In this document: one piece after another, positions 2,714 to 32,613 of the stretch
Layout of the letters: each line of letters starts with the position of its first letter
Position numbering within the stretch: the stretch's first letter is position 1
The notes under the pieces: generated by a model
The model's input: only the letters and a program-made list of their open reading frames with translations
What the model was told of the DNA's origin: nothing
The model's database searches: none
Position numbers and translations under genes: made by a program
Assembly: GCA_000004695.1 (NCBI GenBank)
Contig: CM000152.2
Span: 1,952,001-2,016,000, forward strand
From: Dictyostelium discoideum
Taxonomy: Eukaryota
Length of the DNA stretch: 64,000 nt
Direction of reading: 5' to 3'

Positions 2714-3838
2714 ATGGCAAGAACGGATAATGTTCAATTACCTTTGGAAAATACAAGTATTGAATTTGAAGAAGAGATTATTGATTCCCAAAATGACATA
2801 TCACAACAAAAAAATTATCAAGATTTTTTAAAAAATATTCCAACTGATTTAAATGAAAGAAAAGAGTATATTTCATCTTTGAAGAAATTAATCAAACTTG
2901 AAAAAAGAAATCATCAACAAATTCAGGGTGAGCAACCAAATCAACAAGAAGGTCTCAATAGTGATCGTCCACCACCAAACCATCATGGTGACCATCACCA
3001 TTCTCTACCTCCTCCAAATCATCATGGTGACCATCATCACCATTCTCAACCCCCACCAAATCATCATGGTGATCATCATCACCATTCTCCACCTCCACCA
3101 CACCATCATGGTGGTCATCACCATTGTCCACCACCACATCATGGTGGCCATCACCATTGTCCACCCCCTCCACCACACCATCATGGAGGCCATCATCACC
3201 ATTGTCCACCCCCACCACACCATCATGGAGGTCATCATCACCATTGTCCACCACCTCCACCACCACACCATCATAGTCATCATCACCATTGTCCACCACC
3301 TCCACCACCACATCATCATGGAGGCCATCATCACCATACTCCACCACATCCTCCACCACATCACCATGGAGGCCATCACCACCATTGTCCACCATCGCCA
3401 CACCATCATGGAGGCCATCATCACCATAGTCCACCACCTCCACCACCACATCACCATGGGGGCCATCATCACCATTGTCCACCTCCACCACATGATGGCA
3501 ATGAATATCTACCACAATCTCAAACTAATATTGAACAATGTATCTGTCGTTTAAATAGAAAGAAAGAATTATTAATTGCAAAGATTCAATCTATTGATTC
3601 AATAATTTACAATTTGGAATGTTTAAACAAACAAAATTACCAAAACAATTATTTACCATCAATTCAACTACAACCAACCCAACAACCACAACAACCACAA
3701 CAAACATCAATTAAACCACAACAAATGTGTCAACAATTTTTTATTCCCCAAACTCCAAATTTCCCCCAAATGAACAATTCTGCACCACTAATGTATGTCT
3801 CTCAAATTCCAGTCCAACAATCATTCAACAATAATTAA
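2714..3838 (+). CDS. Histidine/proline-rich tandem-repeat protein, single exon. Unique N-terminal 75 aa, about 17 copies of PPP(P)HHHGGHHHH(C/S), then a Q/P-rich C-terminus. Putative metal-binding protein
   Basis: ATG in A-rich context. Uninterrupted 374-codon ORF. GC-rich 39-nt imperfect repeats. Spurious ORFs in the other frames and on the opposite strand are typical of repeat DNA. Confidence 0.75.
   Translation: MARTDNVQLPLENTSIEFEEEIIDSQNDISQQKNYQDFLKNIPTDLNERKEYISSLKKLIKLEKRNHQQIQGEQPNQQEGLNSDRPPPNHHGDHHHSLPPPNHHGDHHHHSQPPPNHHGDHHHHSPPPPHHHGGHHHCPPPHHGGHHHCPPPPPHHHGGHHHHCPPPPHHHGGHHHHCPPPPPPHHHSHHHHCPPPPPPHHHGGHHHHTPPHPPPHHHGGHHHHCPPSPHHHGGHHHHSPPPPPPHHHGGHHHHCPPPPHDGNEYLPQSQTNIEQCICRLNRKKELLIAKIQSIDSIIYNLECLNKQNYQNNYLPSIQLQPTQQPQQPQQTSIKPQQMCQQFFIPQTPNFPQMNNSAPLMYVSQIPVQQSFNNN
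2965..3492 (+). repeat. Imperfect tandem array of about 39-nt units (ccaccaccacaccatcatggaggccatcatcaccattgtcca), roughly 14-17 copies, coding
   Basis: Direct visual periodicity. Each unit encodes PPPHHHGGHHHHC. Confidence 0.85.
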
Positions 3839-4294: not shown

Positions 4295-4344
4295 CTATTT
4301 TAATGTTATTATAAATGAGTATTTAAATTAATATTTTTAATTTT

Positions 4345-4397
<53 letters not shown>

Positions 4398-4399
4398 AC

Positions 4400-5080
4400 A
4401 CCTAATCCTAAATCACATTCATTATTAGTACTACAAGAATCATTTATTTTTTTTGAATATCTTGAAAGACAAATTCCATCTTTTGAACAAACACCACCAA
4501 TAAAGCAATCGGAATCATATGAACAATTTCCTCCTAATGATGATAATTGTGTACATGATGAACTACAATTAGTAATATCGTCTTCACAATTGTTAAGATT
4601 ACATGCTTGTGTTCCTGGACATGTGAAATAACCTAAACAATTAATTTTATCATATTGTAAAGTTTCATTAAACCAAAATGTGCATTTTGAATTTATACAC
4701 TTAAGATTAAATTGACCCATTCCAAAACAATCAAAATCCGAATCACAATCTTCACCAAGTCCAGCATAATTTGCAGCCTTACAAGTATATGGAGAACCTA
4801 CTTCAAAATCCAATGGAAGACATTCAAGACCAATTTCACATGGACCCAAGTATTTCTCTTTACACTTTTCCCCAAGTTTTAATTTTGGTTTACAAACATA
4901 CTCTGATTGTTCATTATCATCATCAATTGGTAAACATGCTAAACCATAACCACATGAAATATCAATGCCATAAGATTGTACACATGGATGGCCTAATGAA
5001 AAACATTTGCTCTCATTAAAGCAATGTGAAGAATTTATTAATGAAACTATTACAAATATTAATGATAATATTAATTTCAT
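4400..5080 (-). CDS. Exon 1 of secreted cysteine-rich protein. Signal peptide MKLILSLIFVIVSLINSSHC, then repeated 6-Cys modules (CxxGLxCLP, CDSDxDC)
   Basis: ORF 4343..5080 minus. GTAAGT donor immediately after ...CDLGLG. The poly-K tail of the raw ORF is intron read-through. Confidence 0.7.
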
Positions 5081-5410: not shown

Positions 5411-5555
5411 CATTTTTTGAAAAAATTTTTTGTTCTCTTAAAAAACTTTTTATCTTTTTTTTTTTTTTTTTTTTCCTTTCTGTTTTTTTTTTTTCTCTTA
5501 AAAAAACTTTTTATCATTTTTCTTTTTTTTTCCTTTCTGTTTTTTTTTTTATGAA
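5411..5555. repeat. Local tandem duplication of about 60 bp (ctcttaaaaaa(a)ctttttatc...tcctttctgttttttttttt), 2 copies
   Basis: Direct repeat seen in sequence. Confidence 0.7.
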
Positions 5556-5559
5556 ATGA

Positions 5560-6694
5560 TCGAAATATATAAAATTAAGTTATAACTATGAAAATATTCC
5601 AGATATACAAATTACTAATGGTGAAAATGATGTTATTTTTAAATATGTTTTTAAAAATGGTAGGGACAAGAATAAACAACCTTCAAATTTATCTTTAGTT
5701 TGTTGGAATTGGTTTCAATTAAATTCAAAGCTATTCTATAAAATAGGAAAAATAAAAATTAAACAGAAAACATTTAATAATATTTTATTTTATCACGAAT
5801 ATCTTCCATATAATAGAAACATTAGAAACAAGACCACCTTTTACTCTCCAATCAAATCTCAATTTCAAGGAAAAAAAGAAGAAATTGATTCAACCAAATT
5901 TTCAAAATATAAATTATTAAATTTTAATTATGTTCAAAGTGTAAATTCATATCTACTTCCATTAGAATCAATATTTAAAACTTTTAAAAATATTAAACAA
6001 ATAAAATTATCACTATTCTTACTTCCAATTGAAATTGTATTAGATAGTATAAAAACAATTTTAAAATATCAAACAAAAAATGAACTTTCATTTTATTTAG
6101 AATATGAAACTAAAAAACTACCAGATTCAGTGGATTCATTAATTATGGAGGAATCCACTAGTAAAGAATTTTATTATTGTGATTATTTACTATTTAAAGC
6201 ACCAAACATTTATAAACAAAAAATGTTTAGACAATTGAAATTTATCGAGTTAATGAATCCAATAAAATTACATCTAAAATCATCACATCATTCTTTTACA
6301 AAAGAATTTTTCAATGGTTGCAATACATTGAAAAGCTTTATTTTTGGTGGTGATTTTTTGGAATTACAATCTTTAAATATGGCAATTGAATCATCAAGTT
6401 TAATAGAAACCATTAAAGCAAAGTTCTTATTTCATGATTTACATTATCATTTAGAAGATCCAACGTTTGTTAATGGAACTCAATTAGAACCACTATATCG
6501 ATTCATTTCCATGTAGTTACTATAAACCTGAAGTACCTTATGATTATTCATTTACAAACTATTTCAATCATTTTAAACGACTTTGTGAAAATCTTAAAAA
6601 TACTAAAACTTTAAAACATTTGAATTTAAATAATTATTGTTATAAACCAATTTCAAGATGTAAAATTAGATCCAAACCAAATAATAATAATAGA

Positions 6695-6763
<69 letters not shown>

Positions 6764-7219
6764 TTATGTAATTCAAATTTATATTCAAGTTTTTTTAATT
6801 CACTTGAATTAAATAGTTCATTAACAAAGTTAGTAATTTCAAATTGGAGTTTTGAAAATGAAACACCAGGATTAATAGATTCACTTTGTAATAATAAATC
6901 AATTATAAACCTATCACTAACTAATGGTGCATTAAGAGGTGATATAGATTTACCATTAGTTTCTAAATTATTAATATCATCAAGTACAAATAGAATTTTT
7001 ATATTAAATATATCATTTAATTATTTCACTGATATTGATAATTTAATTAAAATTATTAATGATTCAGAACCAAATTTAAATAGATTATTAATTTTAAAAA
7101 TTAATGGTTTTTGTCAATATTCAATGCTTGATAATTTAACAATAGTACGACCACAGGTTAAAACAAAAAATGATATCAATAAAACTTGTCAATTTGAATT
7201 AAAAATTGTCAAAAATTAA
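5560..7219 (+). pseudogene. LRR-like, Asn-rich ORF family member. It has no ATG for the first 190 codons and a +1 frameshift in the 6488..6516 overlap; probable pseudogene or mis-assembled gene. Frame 1 is open 5560..6516; frame 2 is open 6488..7219 and contains a 24xAsn tract
   Basis: The two long open frames overlap by 29 nt. The intron alternative was rejected (see noticed_but_rejected). Leu-rich xLxxLxL periodicity (LKINGFC, LSLTNGAL). Confidence 0.45.
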
Positions 7220-7524
7220 TTCAAATATTAAAAATAGAAATGTTAAAATAAGAAATTATGAACCCTTTGATTATATAGGTATTAAAAGATTTAAAATAAA
7301 AGAGTATTTTTAAAAAAAAAAAAAAAAAAAATTATAAATTATAATTTCTTTTATTTATTTATTTTATTTATTTATTTATTTTATTTATATACATATTTAT
7401 TTAATTTTAAGTATTTAAATTTTTTTTTTTTTTTTTTTTTTTCTTTGTTCTTTGTTCTTTTATCACACCAATAGTTCAATTATTTGTTGGAAGTTGTGAG
7501 TATATTACAAATATAATCACACAT

Positions 7525-7551
<27 letters not shown>

Positions 7552-7557
<6 letters not shown>

Positions 7558-7689
7558 AGTCATTTGAGATGGTAATGGAAGACCCAATTTTGTTGGCTCG
7601 AGTGATTTTGGATGAGCATGTTTTTTAATCCATGGATGGTTAATAACATCTTTTAATGTAATTCTTTGATGTGGATCTGATACAAGTAA
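7552..7689 (-). CDS. aurK: Aurora kinase exon 5 LLVSDPHQRITLKDVINHPWIKKHAHPKSLEPTKLGLPLPSQMTY*
   Basis: TTTTTAG acceptor. Conserved HPWI motif. Total protein 384 aa. Confidence 0.8.
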
Positions 7690-7780
7690 CTAAAAATTAT
7701 TTTGAAAGAAAAAAAAGAAAATTATATTAGTATCCTTTAAAATGAATAATTAATAATAAAAATTAAATTAAATTAAATAC

Positions 7781-8065
7781 TCTTGAAATTAAATCTTTTG
7801 CTTCAGGTGATATTGAAGATGGATAATAAACATCATTCTCTTGTATATTGTGGAAAATATTTTTCTCTTCATCAGAGGTGAAAGGTGAACGACCAACTAA
7901 AAACTCAAATATGAGAATACCTAAACTCCAAACATCAGCTGTTTGATCATAACCTTTCTTTTCAATAACTTCTGGTGGTAAATATTCTAATGTACCACAA
8001 AATGTACTTCTCTTTGTATTTGGTGCATGAACTGACCATCCAAAATCTGCAATTTTAATTTCACC
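7781..8065 (-). CDS. aurK: Aurora kinase exon 4 GEIKIADFGWSVH...SISPEAKDLISR (DFG, APE-like PPE, activation loop)
   Basis: Homology. Donor is the non-canonical GTATTT. Confidence 0.8.
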
Positions 8066-8173
8066 CTTTTAATAAATAAATAAATAAATAAAAAAAAATA
8101 AAAAAAATAAAAAATAAAAAGGTTAATAACTAAAATGTATATAAAAAAAAAAAAAAAAAAAGGAAAAACTTAC

Positions 8174-8269
8174 ACCAACACCAATTAAAAGATTTTCTGG
8201 TTTAATATCTCTATGAATAACATGTTTTGAATGACAATATCTCAAAGCATCTGCAATTTGTAATGTATA
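8174..8269 (-). CDS. aurK: Aurora kinase exon 3 [32 protein letters not shown] (catalytic loop HRDIKPEN)
   Basis: GTAAGT donor. Homology. Confidence 0.85.
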
Positions 8270-8302
<33 letters not shown>

Positions 8303-8394
8303 ATTAATATAAAATATTATGAATATTGTGGTAGTAGGTTATTTTTAAAATAGAAAATAGAAAATAAAAACAAAAAAAAAATATTAATACTTAC

Positions 8395-8533
8395 AGTAGC
8401 AGCAGTTTGTTCATTAAAAGATCCGACTTTTTGTAACTCTTTAAAACATTCACCACCTTTGGCAAATTCAATAATTAAGAAAACTCTTTTATCATCATAA
8501 AAATATCCAAATAATCTTAAAATATTTGGATGT
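8395..8533 (-). CDS. aurK: Aurora kinase exon 2 (R)[46 protein letters not shown]
   Basis: Acceptor AAAAAAG. Phase-2 join completes the Arg codon. GTAAGT donor. Confidence 0.85.
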
Positions 8534-8667
8534 CTTTTTTTAGTAAAAAAAAAAAATTATTATTATTATTATTTTTATTATTAAAAAATTAAATTAGTAA
8601 ATTTGTTTTTATTTTTATTTTATTTTTATTTTTATTTTGAAAATATTTTCACTAAAATTTATATTAC

Positions 8668-9164
8668 CTTAAATGAGATTGAATTTCAATTTCCCTTCTT
8701 AATTGATGCTCTATATTATGTGTTTGTAATTGATTTTTAAATAAAACTTTGAGTGCAACAATGAATTGACTCTTTTTCTCCCTTGCTAAATAAACGTGAC
8801 CAAATCTACCCATTCCTAATAATTTACCAATATCAAAATCATCAATACACCATTTTTTCTTTGGTACTGATTGAGATGATGAAGATGAAGATGAAGATGA
8901 GGATGAAGATGAAGATGAAGATGAAGATGAAGATGAAGATGAAGATGATGCTGTTGTTGTTGGTGGTATTGTTGAAGTATTAGTTGATGTAGTGGCCCCA
9001 GTTGTTGTTGGTTTTGTAATTGTTGATTTAACAGTCGATGTTGTTTGATGATTATTTATATTTGTATTTTGTTGTTGAAGTACTCTTTGTGGTTGTTTAC
9101 TTGGTACTGAGAATGAACCACCACCAATATTGTTACTATTTTCTTTATTATTTGGATAACTCAT
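8668..9164 (-). CDS. aurK: Aurora kinase exon 1. N-terminal Asn/Thr-rich region, a 28-Ser homopolymer, and the kinase N-lobe [61 protein letters not shown](R)
   Basis: Near-identity to the Aurora GxGxFG and [27 protein letters not shown] motifs. GTAATA donor at 8667. Confidence 0.9.
8878..8945. repeat. (GAAGAT)n imperfect hexanucleotide repeat. On the coding (minus) strand it is (TCTTCA)n and encodes the poly-Ser tract of Aurora
   Basis: Seen in sequence. Confidence 0.9.
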
Positions 9165-9179
9165 TTCTTTAATTTAAAT

Positions 9180-9215
<36 letters not shown>

Positions 9216-9528
9216 AACCAAAAAAAAAAATAAAAAGTTTTAATTTTAATTTATTTTATTTATTTGTTATTATTGGATTATATTTTATTATTATATTGAA
9301 ATATTAAAAACAATAAAGAAAAAAAAAAAAAGAAAATTTGTTTTTTTTTTTTCACAAAAATTAAAAAAAAAAAAAAAAGTGGAAAAAAAGGAGCTTAACG
9401 ACAAATTAAGGCGCAAATTTTAAATTTTTCAAATTTTTAATTTAAAAACAAAAAAAAAAAAAAAATGGAAATAAAAAAATAAAAATAAAAATCTATTTTT
9501 AGAATTAAAAAAAAAATAAAGTTTTTTA

Positions 9529-9892: not shown

Positions 9893-10570
9893 TTACTTCC
9901 ACTACTGCCACTTCCATCCATACTTTGATCTTTTTTGTTTGGATCTTTAAAGTGGGTTTGTTTTGAAGGAGACATAGCTTCGCCACTGTCAGTACCATTA
10001 GTACTATTACTGTAATCACTGCTATTATCATTGTTATCATTATTATTATTATTATTATTATTAACAACATTGTTGTTATTATTATTATTATTGTTATTAT
10101 TGCTATTATCTTGAGCTAAAGTTGAAGGTTCGACCAATCTACCCTCTAAAATGTTATCTATAGTTCTATTTACATTATTTGTTTGCAATAAATCATTTTG
10201 GATGGTTTGAGTTGAAATATTTTCAAATAAACCATGAATATAGTTTGCATTGTACACCAAATTATTATATTGTGATGCTGTTAATGATTGCCTTGATAAG
10301 GTTCTTGGTATACCATTTGAATATTCTGGTCCTGTTGGTGATGAGGAAGATGAAGATGGTGATGTAATTGATAATGGATCTATTGCTGTCGATGCTGATG
10401 TTGATCCTGTACCACCATTTATAGTTGTTGTTGTTGTTACCCCTGATGCTCCTGCTATTGTTGCTGTTGCTGTACCATTATTACCTAAATGATGTTGATG
10501 TTCATCAATTAATGATCTTCTACAAGTTGGACATGAGTGATGTTGTTCTAACCATGCTCTTAAACAAGAA
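9529..10570 (-). CDS. hrd1: Hrd1 exon 6. Rest of the RING-H2 (HSCLRAWLEQHHSCPTCRRSLI), then a long Asn/Ser-rich low-complexity tail
   Basis: TTTTTTAAAG acceptor restores CGHIFH-H-SCLRAW. ORF 9529..10260 is its in-frame 3' part. Confidence 0.8.
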
Positions 10571-10703
10571 CTTTAAAAAATTAATAATAATAATAATAAT
10601 AAATAAAAAAATAAAAGAGAGAGTTAATTTCAAATAACATATATTTTTTCTTTTCTTTTTTTTCTTTCAAAAAAAAAAAAAAAAAAAAAAACACTATACA
10701 TAC

Positions 10704-10968
10704 TGATGAAATATATGACCACATGGTAATTTTTTAGCGGTAACCATTCTATCTCTACAAATTGCACAATCATCATTATAATTCTCTAAATCTTTTTCAC
10801 CTACATTTGGATAACAATTATCCATATCTGAAGTTAATTTACAATAGTTTCTATATGCTGTAATCTTTCTATTTAAATTTCCAAACACCATCTTAAAGTA
10901 GAAAAACATTACAACATGTAATAAAGTTGGTGTAAACCCTTGAATAATAATAATATGAATTAAATGTG
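10704..10968 (-). CDS. hrd1: Hrd1 exon 5, includes the first half of the RING-H2: DDCAICRDRMVTAKKLPCGHIFH
   Basis: T10AG acceptor. GTATGT donor, phase 2. Matches Hrd1 CIICREEMVTGAKRLPCGHIFH. Confidence 0.8.
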
Positions 10969-11064
10969 CTAAAAAAAAAATAAAAAATAAAAAATAAAAA
11001 ATAAAAAAATTAGTGAATTAAATTATAAAAGTATATAATAAAAATAAAAATAACAATAACATAC

Positions 11065-11218
11065 CACAAGTTCCTGCTAAAATTACTGAATCTGTTGAAA
11101 ACTCTGTATAATAAATATATTGTCCTCTTTTATCCCAAACATCTTCTGATGATAAATCGAATAAATGAATTGAATATTTAATCAATGTTTGAACAGTTTC
11201 AAAAAATATTGTAAAACA
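11065..11218 (-). CDS. hrd1: Hrd1 exon 4 CFTIFFETVQTLIKYSIHLFDLSSEDVWDKRGQYIYYTEFSTDSVILAGTC
   Basis: TTTAAAG acceptor. GTATGT donor (phase 1). Homology. Confidence 0.7.
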
Positions 11219-11225
11219 CTTTAAA

Positions 11226-11320
<95 letters not shown>

Positions 11321-11412
11321 TTAATAATAATAATAATAATAATAATAATTAAAGTTAGTAAAACAAAATGAAATTATAATAATTTTTAATTAATTAATTA
11401 ATATCAACTTAC

Positions 11413-11568
11413 TTCAAAATTTAATAACATTAAATTTGATAGACCCTCACCAAAGAAATAAGTAATTGAGAAATAAAACCAAATTAAATCACTAATTAAA
11501 ATACCAACTAATAACATCAATAACTTTAAATGAATTTTTGCATGGGTATTTGGTAAAAATGTATTCAA
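11413..11568 (-). CDS. hrd1: Hrd1 exon 3 LNTFLPNTHAKIHLKLLMLLVGILISDLIWFYFSITYFFGEGLSNLMLLNFE
   Basis: TTATAG acceptor. GTAAGT donor. Aligns with human NISWLFHCRIVSLMFLLGILDF. Confidence 0.7.
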
Positions 11569-11833
11569 CTATAATAATATTATTATTATTATTTGATATT
11601 ATTATTATTATTATTTGATATTATTATTATTTATTTATTATTTATTATTTATTTTAAAATTTCAATAAAAATAAAGTAAATAATGGATTTTGTATTTTGT
11701 TTTTTTTTTTTTTTATTTTATTTTATTTTATAAAATTATGGTGATGAAAAGATTAAACAATATTAATATTAGATGTAAAAAATTATAATATATAAAGTCA
11801 TACCTGTTGTTGTTGTTTATTCCTAACACTTAC

Positions 11834-11995
11834 ATAATCAAATCTGTCTCTTGATAATAGGGAAAATAATTTTAAGCAACATAAAATTGAAAACCAAAAT
11901 CCCCAAACTAATAATGATCCTAATTCTGGTTCTTTAGCTGCAAATATAAAAATTAATTTTGAAACTACATATGTCCATAATCTATCATTAAAATT
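11834..11995 (-). CDS. hrd1: Hrd1 exon 2 NFNDRLWTYVVSKLIFIFAAKEPELGSLLVWGFWFSILCCLKLFSLLSRDRFDY
   Basis: AAATAG acceptor. GTAAGT donor. Homology to human LAEDRVDFM. Confidence 0.7.
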
Positions 11996-31572: not shown

Positions 31573-32613
31573 TTATTTATAAATTGAAACATTGATAATA
31601 TCATTTTGATCATTTTCACAATTATTATCAATTATTACATAACCACGATACATACCTTCAGTGTTGAAAGGCATTTCAACATTTCCATATTTATCAACAC
31701 AAATTACACCACCATCACCAACTGTTATTAATTTTTCCATTACAACTTTATTGGATGCATCTTTTAAAGATAAAGAACCATATTCCATCATTGCAGCAAT
31801 ATCAAAAGCGGCCACTGTTCTCATAAATGCTTCACCAGTTCCAGTTGAACTAACAGCAACATTTTTATTTGCATAAACACCAGCACCAATAATTGGAGTA
31901 TCACCAACTCTACCATGCATTTTATTTGTCATACCACCAGTTGAAGTTGCAGCGGCTAAATTACCAAAGGAATCTAAACAAACAGCACCAACAGTTCCCA
32001 TTTTATACTTTGGATCAATTGGATCAACTCCAACTGAAATAGTTGTCGTTGTTGTTGATGTTTCATTATTCTTTTCTTTTTCTTTTTCTTTTTCTAATAA
32101 ATTTTCACCATCATGATCTAAAATTAATTTCTTTTCATCTTTTGCTCTTAATAATTGATCATATCTATTTTGAGTAAAAAAGAAAGAAGGTTCAACGATT
32201 TCTAAATTCTTTGATTTTGCAAATTCTTCAGCACCTTTTCCAACTAATAAACAATGGTTTGTATGTTCCATAACAGCTCTAGCGGCAATAATAGGATTTC
32301 TAATGATTGAAACGCCACCAACTGCTCCTGCTTTTAAATTTGTACCATCCATAATGGCTGCATCCATTTCATTTGTACCAAGTTCAGTGAATACAGAACC
32401 TTTACCTGCATTATAAATTGGATCTTCTTCTAAAAGTCTAACTGCTTCTTGAACAACATCCAATGATGTACCACCTTGTTTCAATATAATTTTACCTGCT
32501 AATAATATATTCTTTAATGAATTTAAAAATATTTCTTCTCTCTCTTTTGATATTGTTGATTTTGAAATAACTCCTGCACCACCATGAATTACTAAAACTG
32601 ATTTCTTATTCAT
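31573..32613 (-). CDS. Plant-type L-asparaginase / isoaspartyl peptidase (Ntn hydrolase), single exon. GGAG...autoproteolytic G|TVGAV threonine
   Basis: VLVIHGGAG, MGTVGAVCLD, STGTGE motifs. Confidence 0.85.
   Translation of the reverse strand: MNKKSVLVIHGGAGVISKSTISKEREEIFLNSLKNILLAGKIILKQGGTSLDVVQEAVRLLEEDPIYNAGKGSVFTELGTNEMDAAIMDGTNLKAGAVGGVSIIRNPIIAARAVMEHTNHCLLVGKGAEEFAKSKNLEIVEPSFFFTQNRYDQLLRAKDEKKLILDHDGENLLEKEKEKEKNNETSTTTTTISVGVDPIDPKYKMGTVGAVCLDSFGNLAAATSTGGMTNKMHGRVGDTPIIGAGVYANKNVAVSSTGTGEAFMRTVAAFDIAAMMEYGSLSLKDASNKVVMEKLITVGDGGVICVDKYGNVEMPFNTEGMYRGYVIIDNNCENDQNDIINVSIYK

Follow-up and report, generated by a model that had tools for sequence, protein, structure and literature searches.

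A probable, recently inactivated unitary pseudogene of a dictyostelid leucine-rich repeat gene upstream of aurK in Dictyostelium discoideum

Reading frames, orthologs and lesions at the locus

A stretch of 64,000 nucleotides (nt) of the Dictyostelium discoideum AX4 genome (GenBank assembly GCA_000004695.1, contig CM000152.2, positions 1,952,001 to 2,016,000 of the forward strand), referred to here as the window, contains the apparent remnant of a gene for a leucine-rich repeat (LRR) protein. The remnant extends from 5556 to 7313 on the plus strand, with homology to intact genes of related species that runs successively through frames 0, 1, 2 and 0. It is located between a gene for a cysteine-rich secreted protein and aurK (DDB_G0279343), directly upstream of the latter. 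The window is very AT-rich with GC contents per kb of 13-39%. A preliminary description of this DNA had reported two long open reading frames (ORFs) at the locus, and both are present. Frame 1 comprises 318 open codons (5560-6513, plus strand) and terminates in a TAG codon at 6514-6516. Frame 2 is open from 6488 to 7216 on the same strand between a TAG codon at 6485-6487 and a TAA codon at 7217-7219, overlaps frame 1 by 29 nt, and includes the clearest LRR units. Frame 1 has its first in-frame ATG at codon 196 (6145-6147) rather than at codon 191 as described initially, and the only nearby frame-1 ATG (5551) forms part of the sequence ATG-AAA-TGA at 5551-5559, which had been overlooked. Approximately 7% of single-base changes in the two long frames would create a stop codon, and the remaining frames in the region are open for 30-60 codons only. 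As their open length is far above chance expectation, the two long frames certainly are former coding sequence. Exact look-ups of AX4 sub-ORFs of 123, 128 and 199 amino acids (aa) in public assemblies found none on record.

A search with the conceptual fusion of the two frames matched two proteins only. These were ACTA71_003012 of Dictyostelium dimigraforme (P0001; 598 aa, 53% identity, E-value 6e-136), which is specified by a single uninterrupted ORF, and RB653_004222 of D. firmibasis (P0002; 584 aa, 47% identity, E-value 1e-114). In both cases, the identity applies to ~95% of the conceptual translation. In D. firmibasis, the gene model possesses one frame across the homologous region and a sole short intron of 86 nt that is predicted at the far 3′ end. 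Both ends of this model (10001-11841 of the D. firmibasis locus, L002) seem to be slightly incorrect: the N-terminus of the D. dimigraforme protein aligns with an in-frame ATG that is located 14 codons further upstream (MFEIIKNNLIIKKI), and reading the predicted terminal intron (11748-11833) without splicing yields the conserved tail KNFKIKEF. When the first 20 kb of the window were compared with the two ortholog loci by tblastx, the neighbors were collinear on both sides, comprising the upstream Cys-rich gene and aurK with the genes that follow it. Thus, the two proteins are positional orthologs. In the D. dimigraforme locus (L001), ~4 kb with three extra called genes (5649-9442) are interposed between the upstream neighbor and the intact ortholog. 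One of the three genes includes DDE transposase domains (PF01609/PF13359), and the segment is absent from both D. discoideum and D. firmibasis.

An exhaustive HMMER search with the family profile against 1.84 billion representative proteins recovered four proteins only: RB653_004222, a fragment of 82 aa (P0004), PPL_01544 of Heterostelium album (P0005) and DFA_08699 of Cavenderia fasciculata, the latter two being 571 and 575 aa in length, respectively. As the four include proteins from H. album and C. fasciculata, the family appears to be small and spread across distant dictyostelids. No annotated D. discoideum protein was among the matches of this search or of that with the fusion query, and tblastn comparison of both translated pieces with the whole window identified no paralog within it. 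A word-indexed protein search with the family alignment provided nothing beyond the D. dimigraforme and D. firmibasis proteins; the same type of search with the C-terminal 151 aa produced no matches and, as it also missed the known orthologs, was uninformative. The ancestral gene probably was a single exon of ~590 codons whose position has been kept in D. dimigraforme and D. firmibasis, with distant homologs of the same length in H. album and C. fasciculata.

The alterations in the D. discoideum locus were read from a three-way DNA alignment of the window with D. dimigraforme and D. firmibasis, in which gaps were tabulated, and from tblastn searches with the two ortholog proteins. All gaps in the window sequence are multiples of three except one of 29 nt and one of 39 + 5 nt; a third lesion consists of extra length in the window. 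In tblastn, residues 13-342, 359-567 and 562-598 of the D. dimigraforme protein fall in frames 1, 2 and 0, at 5563-6498 (49% identity), 6503-7171 (56% identity) and 7203-7310 (51% identity), respectively. Residues 558-575 of the D. firmibasis protein match 7209-7262 with 78% identity.

The ancestral start, which the preliminary description had missed, persists as the first 7-8 codons (MIEIYKI) in frame 0 at 5556-5578 on the plus strand. This frame stops at a TAA codon at 5583-5585. The window sequence ATGATCGAAATATATAAAATTAA aligns here with the D. dimigraforme start MNDINKSN and with the in-frame upstream ATG of D. firmibasis (MFEIIKNN). Lesion 1 is a 29-nt deletion relative to both orthologs with its junction after codon 8 at 5578-5579 (plus strand). 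The deletion moves the gene body into frame 1 and strands ATG 5556 in frame 0, which explains the lack of a start codon in frame 1. The absence of a start codon had been recognized correctly, whereas the extent assigned to the element, 5560-7219, falls short of the homologous region at both ends. Lesion 2 is a net 44-nt deletion at 6488-6503 (plus strand) that appears in the alignment as two gaps, one of 39 nt that follows 6488 and one of 5 nt that follows 6503. The tblastn segments stop at 6498 in frame 1 and resume at 6503 in frame 2, and reading thereby moves to frame 2. Sixteen ortholog codons (ISEMMFSDQPQPIPFK; residues 343-358 in D. dimigraforme) are removed and 4 nt stand in their place. 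Because 16 codons correspond to 4 nt, the frameshift results from a 44-nt deletion, rather than from the gain or loss of a single base within the 29-nt overlap that had been proposed formerly.

Moreover, the internal frameshift is not the only one, as the locus bears three disabling lesions. Lesion 3 is a frame change of net +1 (modulo 3) in a length-variable stretch at 7142-7208 on the plus strand and is known from the AX4 sequence only. In the window, the interval between conserved anchors at ~7113 and 7210 exceeds its counterpart in D. dimigraforme by 37 nt and that in D. firmibasis by 19 nt, and each of these values is +1 modulo 3. Homology in frame 2 extends no further than about 7171-7204, and that in frame 0 begins at 7203-7209. 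The frame-0 tail (KLSKINSNIKNRNVKIRNYEPFDYIGIKRFKIKEYF), another element that had gone unnoticed, occupies 7203-7313 on the plus strand with the ancestral TAA stop codon at 7311-7313: the C-terminal 34-37 residues of the orthologs align with frame 0 at 7203-7310 (SKINSNIKNRNV...FKIKEYF). The conserved C-terminal 34 codons, which now read in frame 0 at 7209-7310, are cut off by the frame-2 stop codon at 7217-7219. Thus, both homology at the syntenic position and disruption of the frame in comparison with intact orthologs, as expected of a unitary pseudogene, are evident at the locus.

Other changes leave the frame intact. An (AAT)28 tract at 6680-6763 (plus strand; Tandem Repeats Finder, period 3, 28 copies) is in frame and specifies a poly-asparagine run of ~27 residues. 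It is absent from both orthologs, in which the gaps at this site sum to multiples of three. A block conserved in the orthologs (SGIH...SF.P before HHYFTKEFF) has been lost by an in-frame 30-nt (10-codon) deletion at 6281, which is one among several in-frame indels specific to D. discoideum. In the T-rich region just upstream of the ancestral ATG, a unit of 57 nt is duplicated in tandem at 5426-5550 (2.1 copies, 88% match).

In the mechanism proposed, three length changes, none of which is a multiple of three, would have broken the D. discoideum reading frame and left the start codon in frame 0, the N-terminal two thirds in frame 1, the C-terminal third in frame 2 and the last 34 codons in frame 0 again. 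A ribosome that initiated at the ancestral ATG at 5556 would stop after nine codons and no full-length product could be made as a result. Any transcript of the locus presumably would be non-coding.

A second haplotype and the timing of inactivation

The locus also is represented in seven Logan contigs (L003-L009) from seven other SRA runs (SRR26869246/57/67/68 and SRR28564541-43), which were reached via the 82-aa fragment and its cluster mate P0007 and are collinear with window positions 5508-6715. Contigs L004-L009 begin within the tandem duplication at 5426-5550. All seven contigs carry one haplotype. This second haplotype is the same as AX4 base for base across 6480-6520, and hence across the overlap at 6488-6516, in all seven contigs, and at the 5578 junction in six (L004-L009). 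Relative to AX4, it has a 4-nt insertion at 6361 and ten point substitutions, of which eight are located inside the frames and away from this insertion. Among these eight, A to T at 5761 produces an in-frame TAA codon and the other seven are missense; none is synonymous. Polarization with the orthologs revealed derived changes on both haplotypes. As the two haplotypes share lesions 1 and 2 unchanged, these lesions are real, are not sequencing artifacts, and predate the split of the two D. discoideum haplotypes. Furthermore, because the second haplotype adds both TAA 5761 and the 4-nt insertion, the locus keeps gaining disabling mutations. The contigs do not reach lesion 3 as they end in the (AAT)28 tract, with all seven broken in or before it.

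The rate of change at the locus was assessed with D. firmibasis as the outgroup, a choice that follows from the neighboring genes in which most unique changes are found in D. firmibasis, and that agrees with the published ordering of clades (PMC12745789). There were 91 residues unique to D. discoideum and 45 unique to D. dimigraforme (binomial p = 1e-4). A neighboring ORF of 1000 alignment columns used as a control gave values of 95 and 90, and the contrast with the locus was significant (Fisher p = 0.0007-0.006). Nei-Gojobori distances resolved on the three-taxon tree yielded a branch ratio of non-synonymous to synonymous substitution (dN/dS) of ~0.95 (0.196/0.207) for D. discoideum, compared to 0.38 for D. 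dimigraforme and 0.41 for D. firmibasis. The D. discoideum branch thereby appears to have accumulated approximately twice the amino acid change of its sister branch, a pattern that matches relaxed constraint. The inactivation nevertheless seems recent, since neither long AX4 frame holds a stop codon. In simulations, the probability that no stop arises falls below 0.05 once neutral substitutions exceed ~0.03 per site, whereas the branch length is ~0.2. The frame breaks therefore may be placed within roughly the last 15% of the D. discoideum branch.

Evaluation of alternative explanations

Overall, the locus at 5556-7313 is regarded as an ordinary, recently inactivated unitary non-processed pseudogene of a dictyostelid LRR gene, with a probability of about 0.93. 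Several observations weigh against this interpretation. The contigs that carry the second haplotype are known by SRA run only. Lesion 3 derives from AX4 alone and is sited in a stretch whose length varies among the orthologs. The evidence is based on sequence and is compatible with residual expression or with the function of a fragment. The two long AX4 frames without an in-frame stop also would fit continued selection on these frames. Finally, as in-frame stops are lacking, the approximately twofold excess of amino acid change cannot all be decay that followed inactivation. Much of the extra change is likely to have occurred while the ORF was intact, under relaxed or positive selection, and alignment noise could contribute to the excess. 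The combination of fast change with an absence of stops is in tension and is unexplained, but does not affect the verdict of a pseudogene.

The preliminary description had offered a pseudogene or an assembly error as explanations, of which the former is retained. An error in the AX4 reference would imply that the gene is intact and that the overlap at 6488-6516 contains one or a few miscalled bases. A single-base change there would join both frames arithmetically, the sequence is AT-rich with homopolymer runs, and lesion 3, for which there is AX4 sequence only, is close to an A5 run. However, the differences from the orthologs are deletions of 44 nt (net, 6488-6503) and 29 nt (5578), neither of which is a base-call slip, seven contigs from other SRA runs possess the AX4 sequence at both junctions, and three separate lesions each would need to be mistakes. 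An assembly error consequently is judged highly improbable. Splicing would rescue the gene differently: the interval at 6513-6657 would be a newly intronized segment, and an upstream exon would supply the ATG. The interval begins with GT (6513-6514) and ends with AG (6656-6657), its removal would place frames 1 and 2 in phase with each other (AT|A), and its 145 nt are a typical length for a Dictyostelium intron. Nevertheless, its frame-2 translation (SYYKPEVPYDYSFTNYFNHFKRLCENLKNTKTLKHLNLNNYCYKPIS; plus strand) is homologous to coding sequence of both orthologs, which is uninterrupted here and forms a single continuous exon in D. dimigraforme. Its GC content (20.7%) resembles the coding flanks (22% and 17%) and not three neighboring introns of aurK (8-10%), and the donor GTAGTT differs from the local sequences GTAAGT and GTATTT. 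The candidate spliceosomal intron was ruled out on these grounds of coding homology and composition, in accord with its earlier dismissal. In addition, the ancestral ATG is at 5556 and no GT..AG pair of usable length is available before frame 1 starts, excision of 6513-6657 would leave both the missing start and lesion 3 unrepaired, and the second haplotype has the TAA codon and the 4-nt insertion within the supposed first exon. A functional gene restored by splicing is very unlikely.

Unconventional decoding also could preserve function, either by three programmed +1 ribosomal frameshifts at stop codons or by translation of LRR fragments that initiates internally, for example at ATG 6145. Each of the three shifts is +1, and at every stop the next frame is open such that skipping the T of TAA 5583, TAG 6514 or TAA 7217 continues the homologous frame. 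Both long frames also are free of stops despite the ~7% of mutations that would create them. Conversely, the orthologs are single-frame genes and therefore no shift site is conserved, and three shifts in the same direction have a chance probability of 1/4. At lesion 3, the frame-2 stop is not the site of the shift, as frame-0 homology (SKINS at 7209) starts before it. The in-frame TAA 5761 of the second haplotype cannot be bypassed by +1 slippage, and the 4-nt insertion alters the product of the ORF that begins at ATG 6145. Dictyostelium is not known to use such decoding. Frameshifting or internal initiation at the locus is considered extremely improbable. In a related scenario the AX4 allele is alive, either through +1 frameshifting at stops or because the stop-free LRR frames are kept for translated fragments under selection, and the second haplotype is the true null. 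A milder version has an intact allele still segregating in wild D. discoideum, in which case the presence or absence of a fast-evolving LRR receptor would be polymorphic at the locus. Even taken jointly, these two versions have a very slim chance of being correct.

Neighboring features, the ancestral protein and related systems

The placement of aurK downstream of the pseudogene is based on published guide RNAs for DDB_G0279343, which map to 7633-9101 on the minus strand; the supplement of the CRISPR library lists aurK and amfr as neighbors. The upstream neighbor at 4343-5080 on the minus strand is, by appearance, a cysteine-rich protein with a signal peptide and is conserved in both sister species. 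Its ORF ends in a poly-lysine tail that stems from an A-run, and because the ORF runs into this tract, the true 3′ end or an intron is expected ahead of the tail. Further upstream, an ORF of 374 codons at 2714-3838 on the plus strand has ~39% GC and is composed mostly of HHHGGHHHH(C/S)PPPP repeats, which account for all six frames being open across the interval. As the exact protein is absent from the public collection, the real gene probably includes introns or has a different start. Exact look-ups of ten further ORFs in the window provided a sole match, the ORF at 31576-32613 on the minus strand which is DDB_G0279357 of D. discoideum AX4. The literature on DDB_G0279341 and DDB_G0279339 was searched and nothing useful was found.

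The description of the element as LRR-like is borne out by protein fold, for the orthologs only, and not by Pfam, in which no LRR model reaches threshold. When the two translated pieces and four family members were scanned with Pfam, no domain exceeded threshold: the window pieces and the D. dimigraforme and D. firmibasis proteins had no LRR match, and the family member P0006 showed sub-threshold matches to LRR_8, LRR_1 and LRR_6 (E-values 0.1-3). An AlphaFold (AF2) model of the D. dimigraforme ortholog was built from six sequences and attained moderate confidence, with a predicted template modeling score of 0.63; it replaced a first model from four sequences that was too poor, with a predicted local distance difference test (pLDDT) value of 43. 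Residues 146-541 form alternating strand/helix repeats (block-mean pLDDT mostly 55-93) that are arranged as a solenoid of ~12 repeats, and the N-terminal 140 residues have pLDDT values below 50. In a Foldseek comparison with the PDB, 19 of 19 matches at E-values up to 0.001 were LRR horseshoes of the NLR family (NLRC4 and NLRPs). Ribonuclease inhibitor, COI1, TIR1, FBXL17 and SKP2 followed at E-values of 0.002-0.01, with TM-scores of only 0.25-0.38. The family profile also matched LRR chains weakly among PDB sequences (E-values 0.001-0.05). The modeled fold thus supports an ancestral protein that probably was an LRR solenoid of RNI type. An F-box may have been present at the N-terminus. The family profile gave non-significant E-values of 0.59 and 1.3 with the F-box segments of COI1 and TIR1, respectively, and the sole match in the Pfam F-box test was to residues 66-88 of the H. 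album protein PPL_01544 (E-value 0.09; 13 bits compared to a cut-off of 24.3). A role as substrate receptor of an SCF complex is plausible as a weak lead only.

For annotation, the interval between aurK and the upstream neighbor (5556-7313) should be labeled as a pseudogene, and not as a spliced gene or as an error to be corrected. The pseudogene would represent the lineage-specific loss, in a model species, of a family that is kept in at least four other dictyostelid species. The family, which probably is of LRR and possibly of F-box type, would therefore need to be studied in another species; protocols for the editing of dictyostelids other than D. discoideum are reported (PMC13046832). The comparison of three species also indicates where the D. 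firmibasis gene model may be corrected, and the burst of amino acid change before inactivation is a minor evolutionary curiosity.

In comparison with its orthologs in D. dimigraforme and D. firmibasis, the D. discoideum locus is alike in its neighbors, orientation and single-exon body. It differs from these intact ORFs in the lack of 29 nt and 44 nt, in the net +1 change near the 3′ end, in the loss of the conserved 10-codon block and in the gain of (AAT)28. The ortholog model has the strand/helix solenoid in common with LRR proteins of RNI type, including the F-box/LRR receptors SKP2, FBXL17, TIR1 and COI1 and the LRR domains of NLR proteins. However, NLR proteins possess a NACHT or other NLR module that is absent from the ortholog family, and the family does not pass the Pfam LRR and F-box thresholds of the RNI-type LRR and F-box families. 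With unitary pseudogenes the locus shares synteny with intact orthologs, several frame-breaking indels, a start that is out of frame, a raised non-synonymous rate and further disabling mutations on a second haplotype. Compared with typical unitary pseudogenes it is uncommonly fresh, as its ~560 codons are free of in-frame stops, and most of the excess amino acid change seems older than the frame breaks; nothing essential differs.

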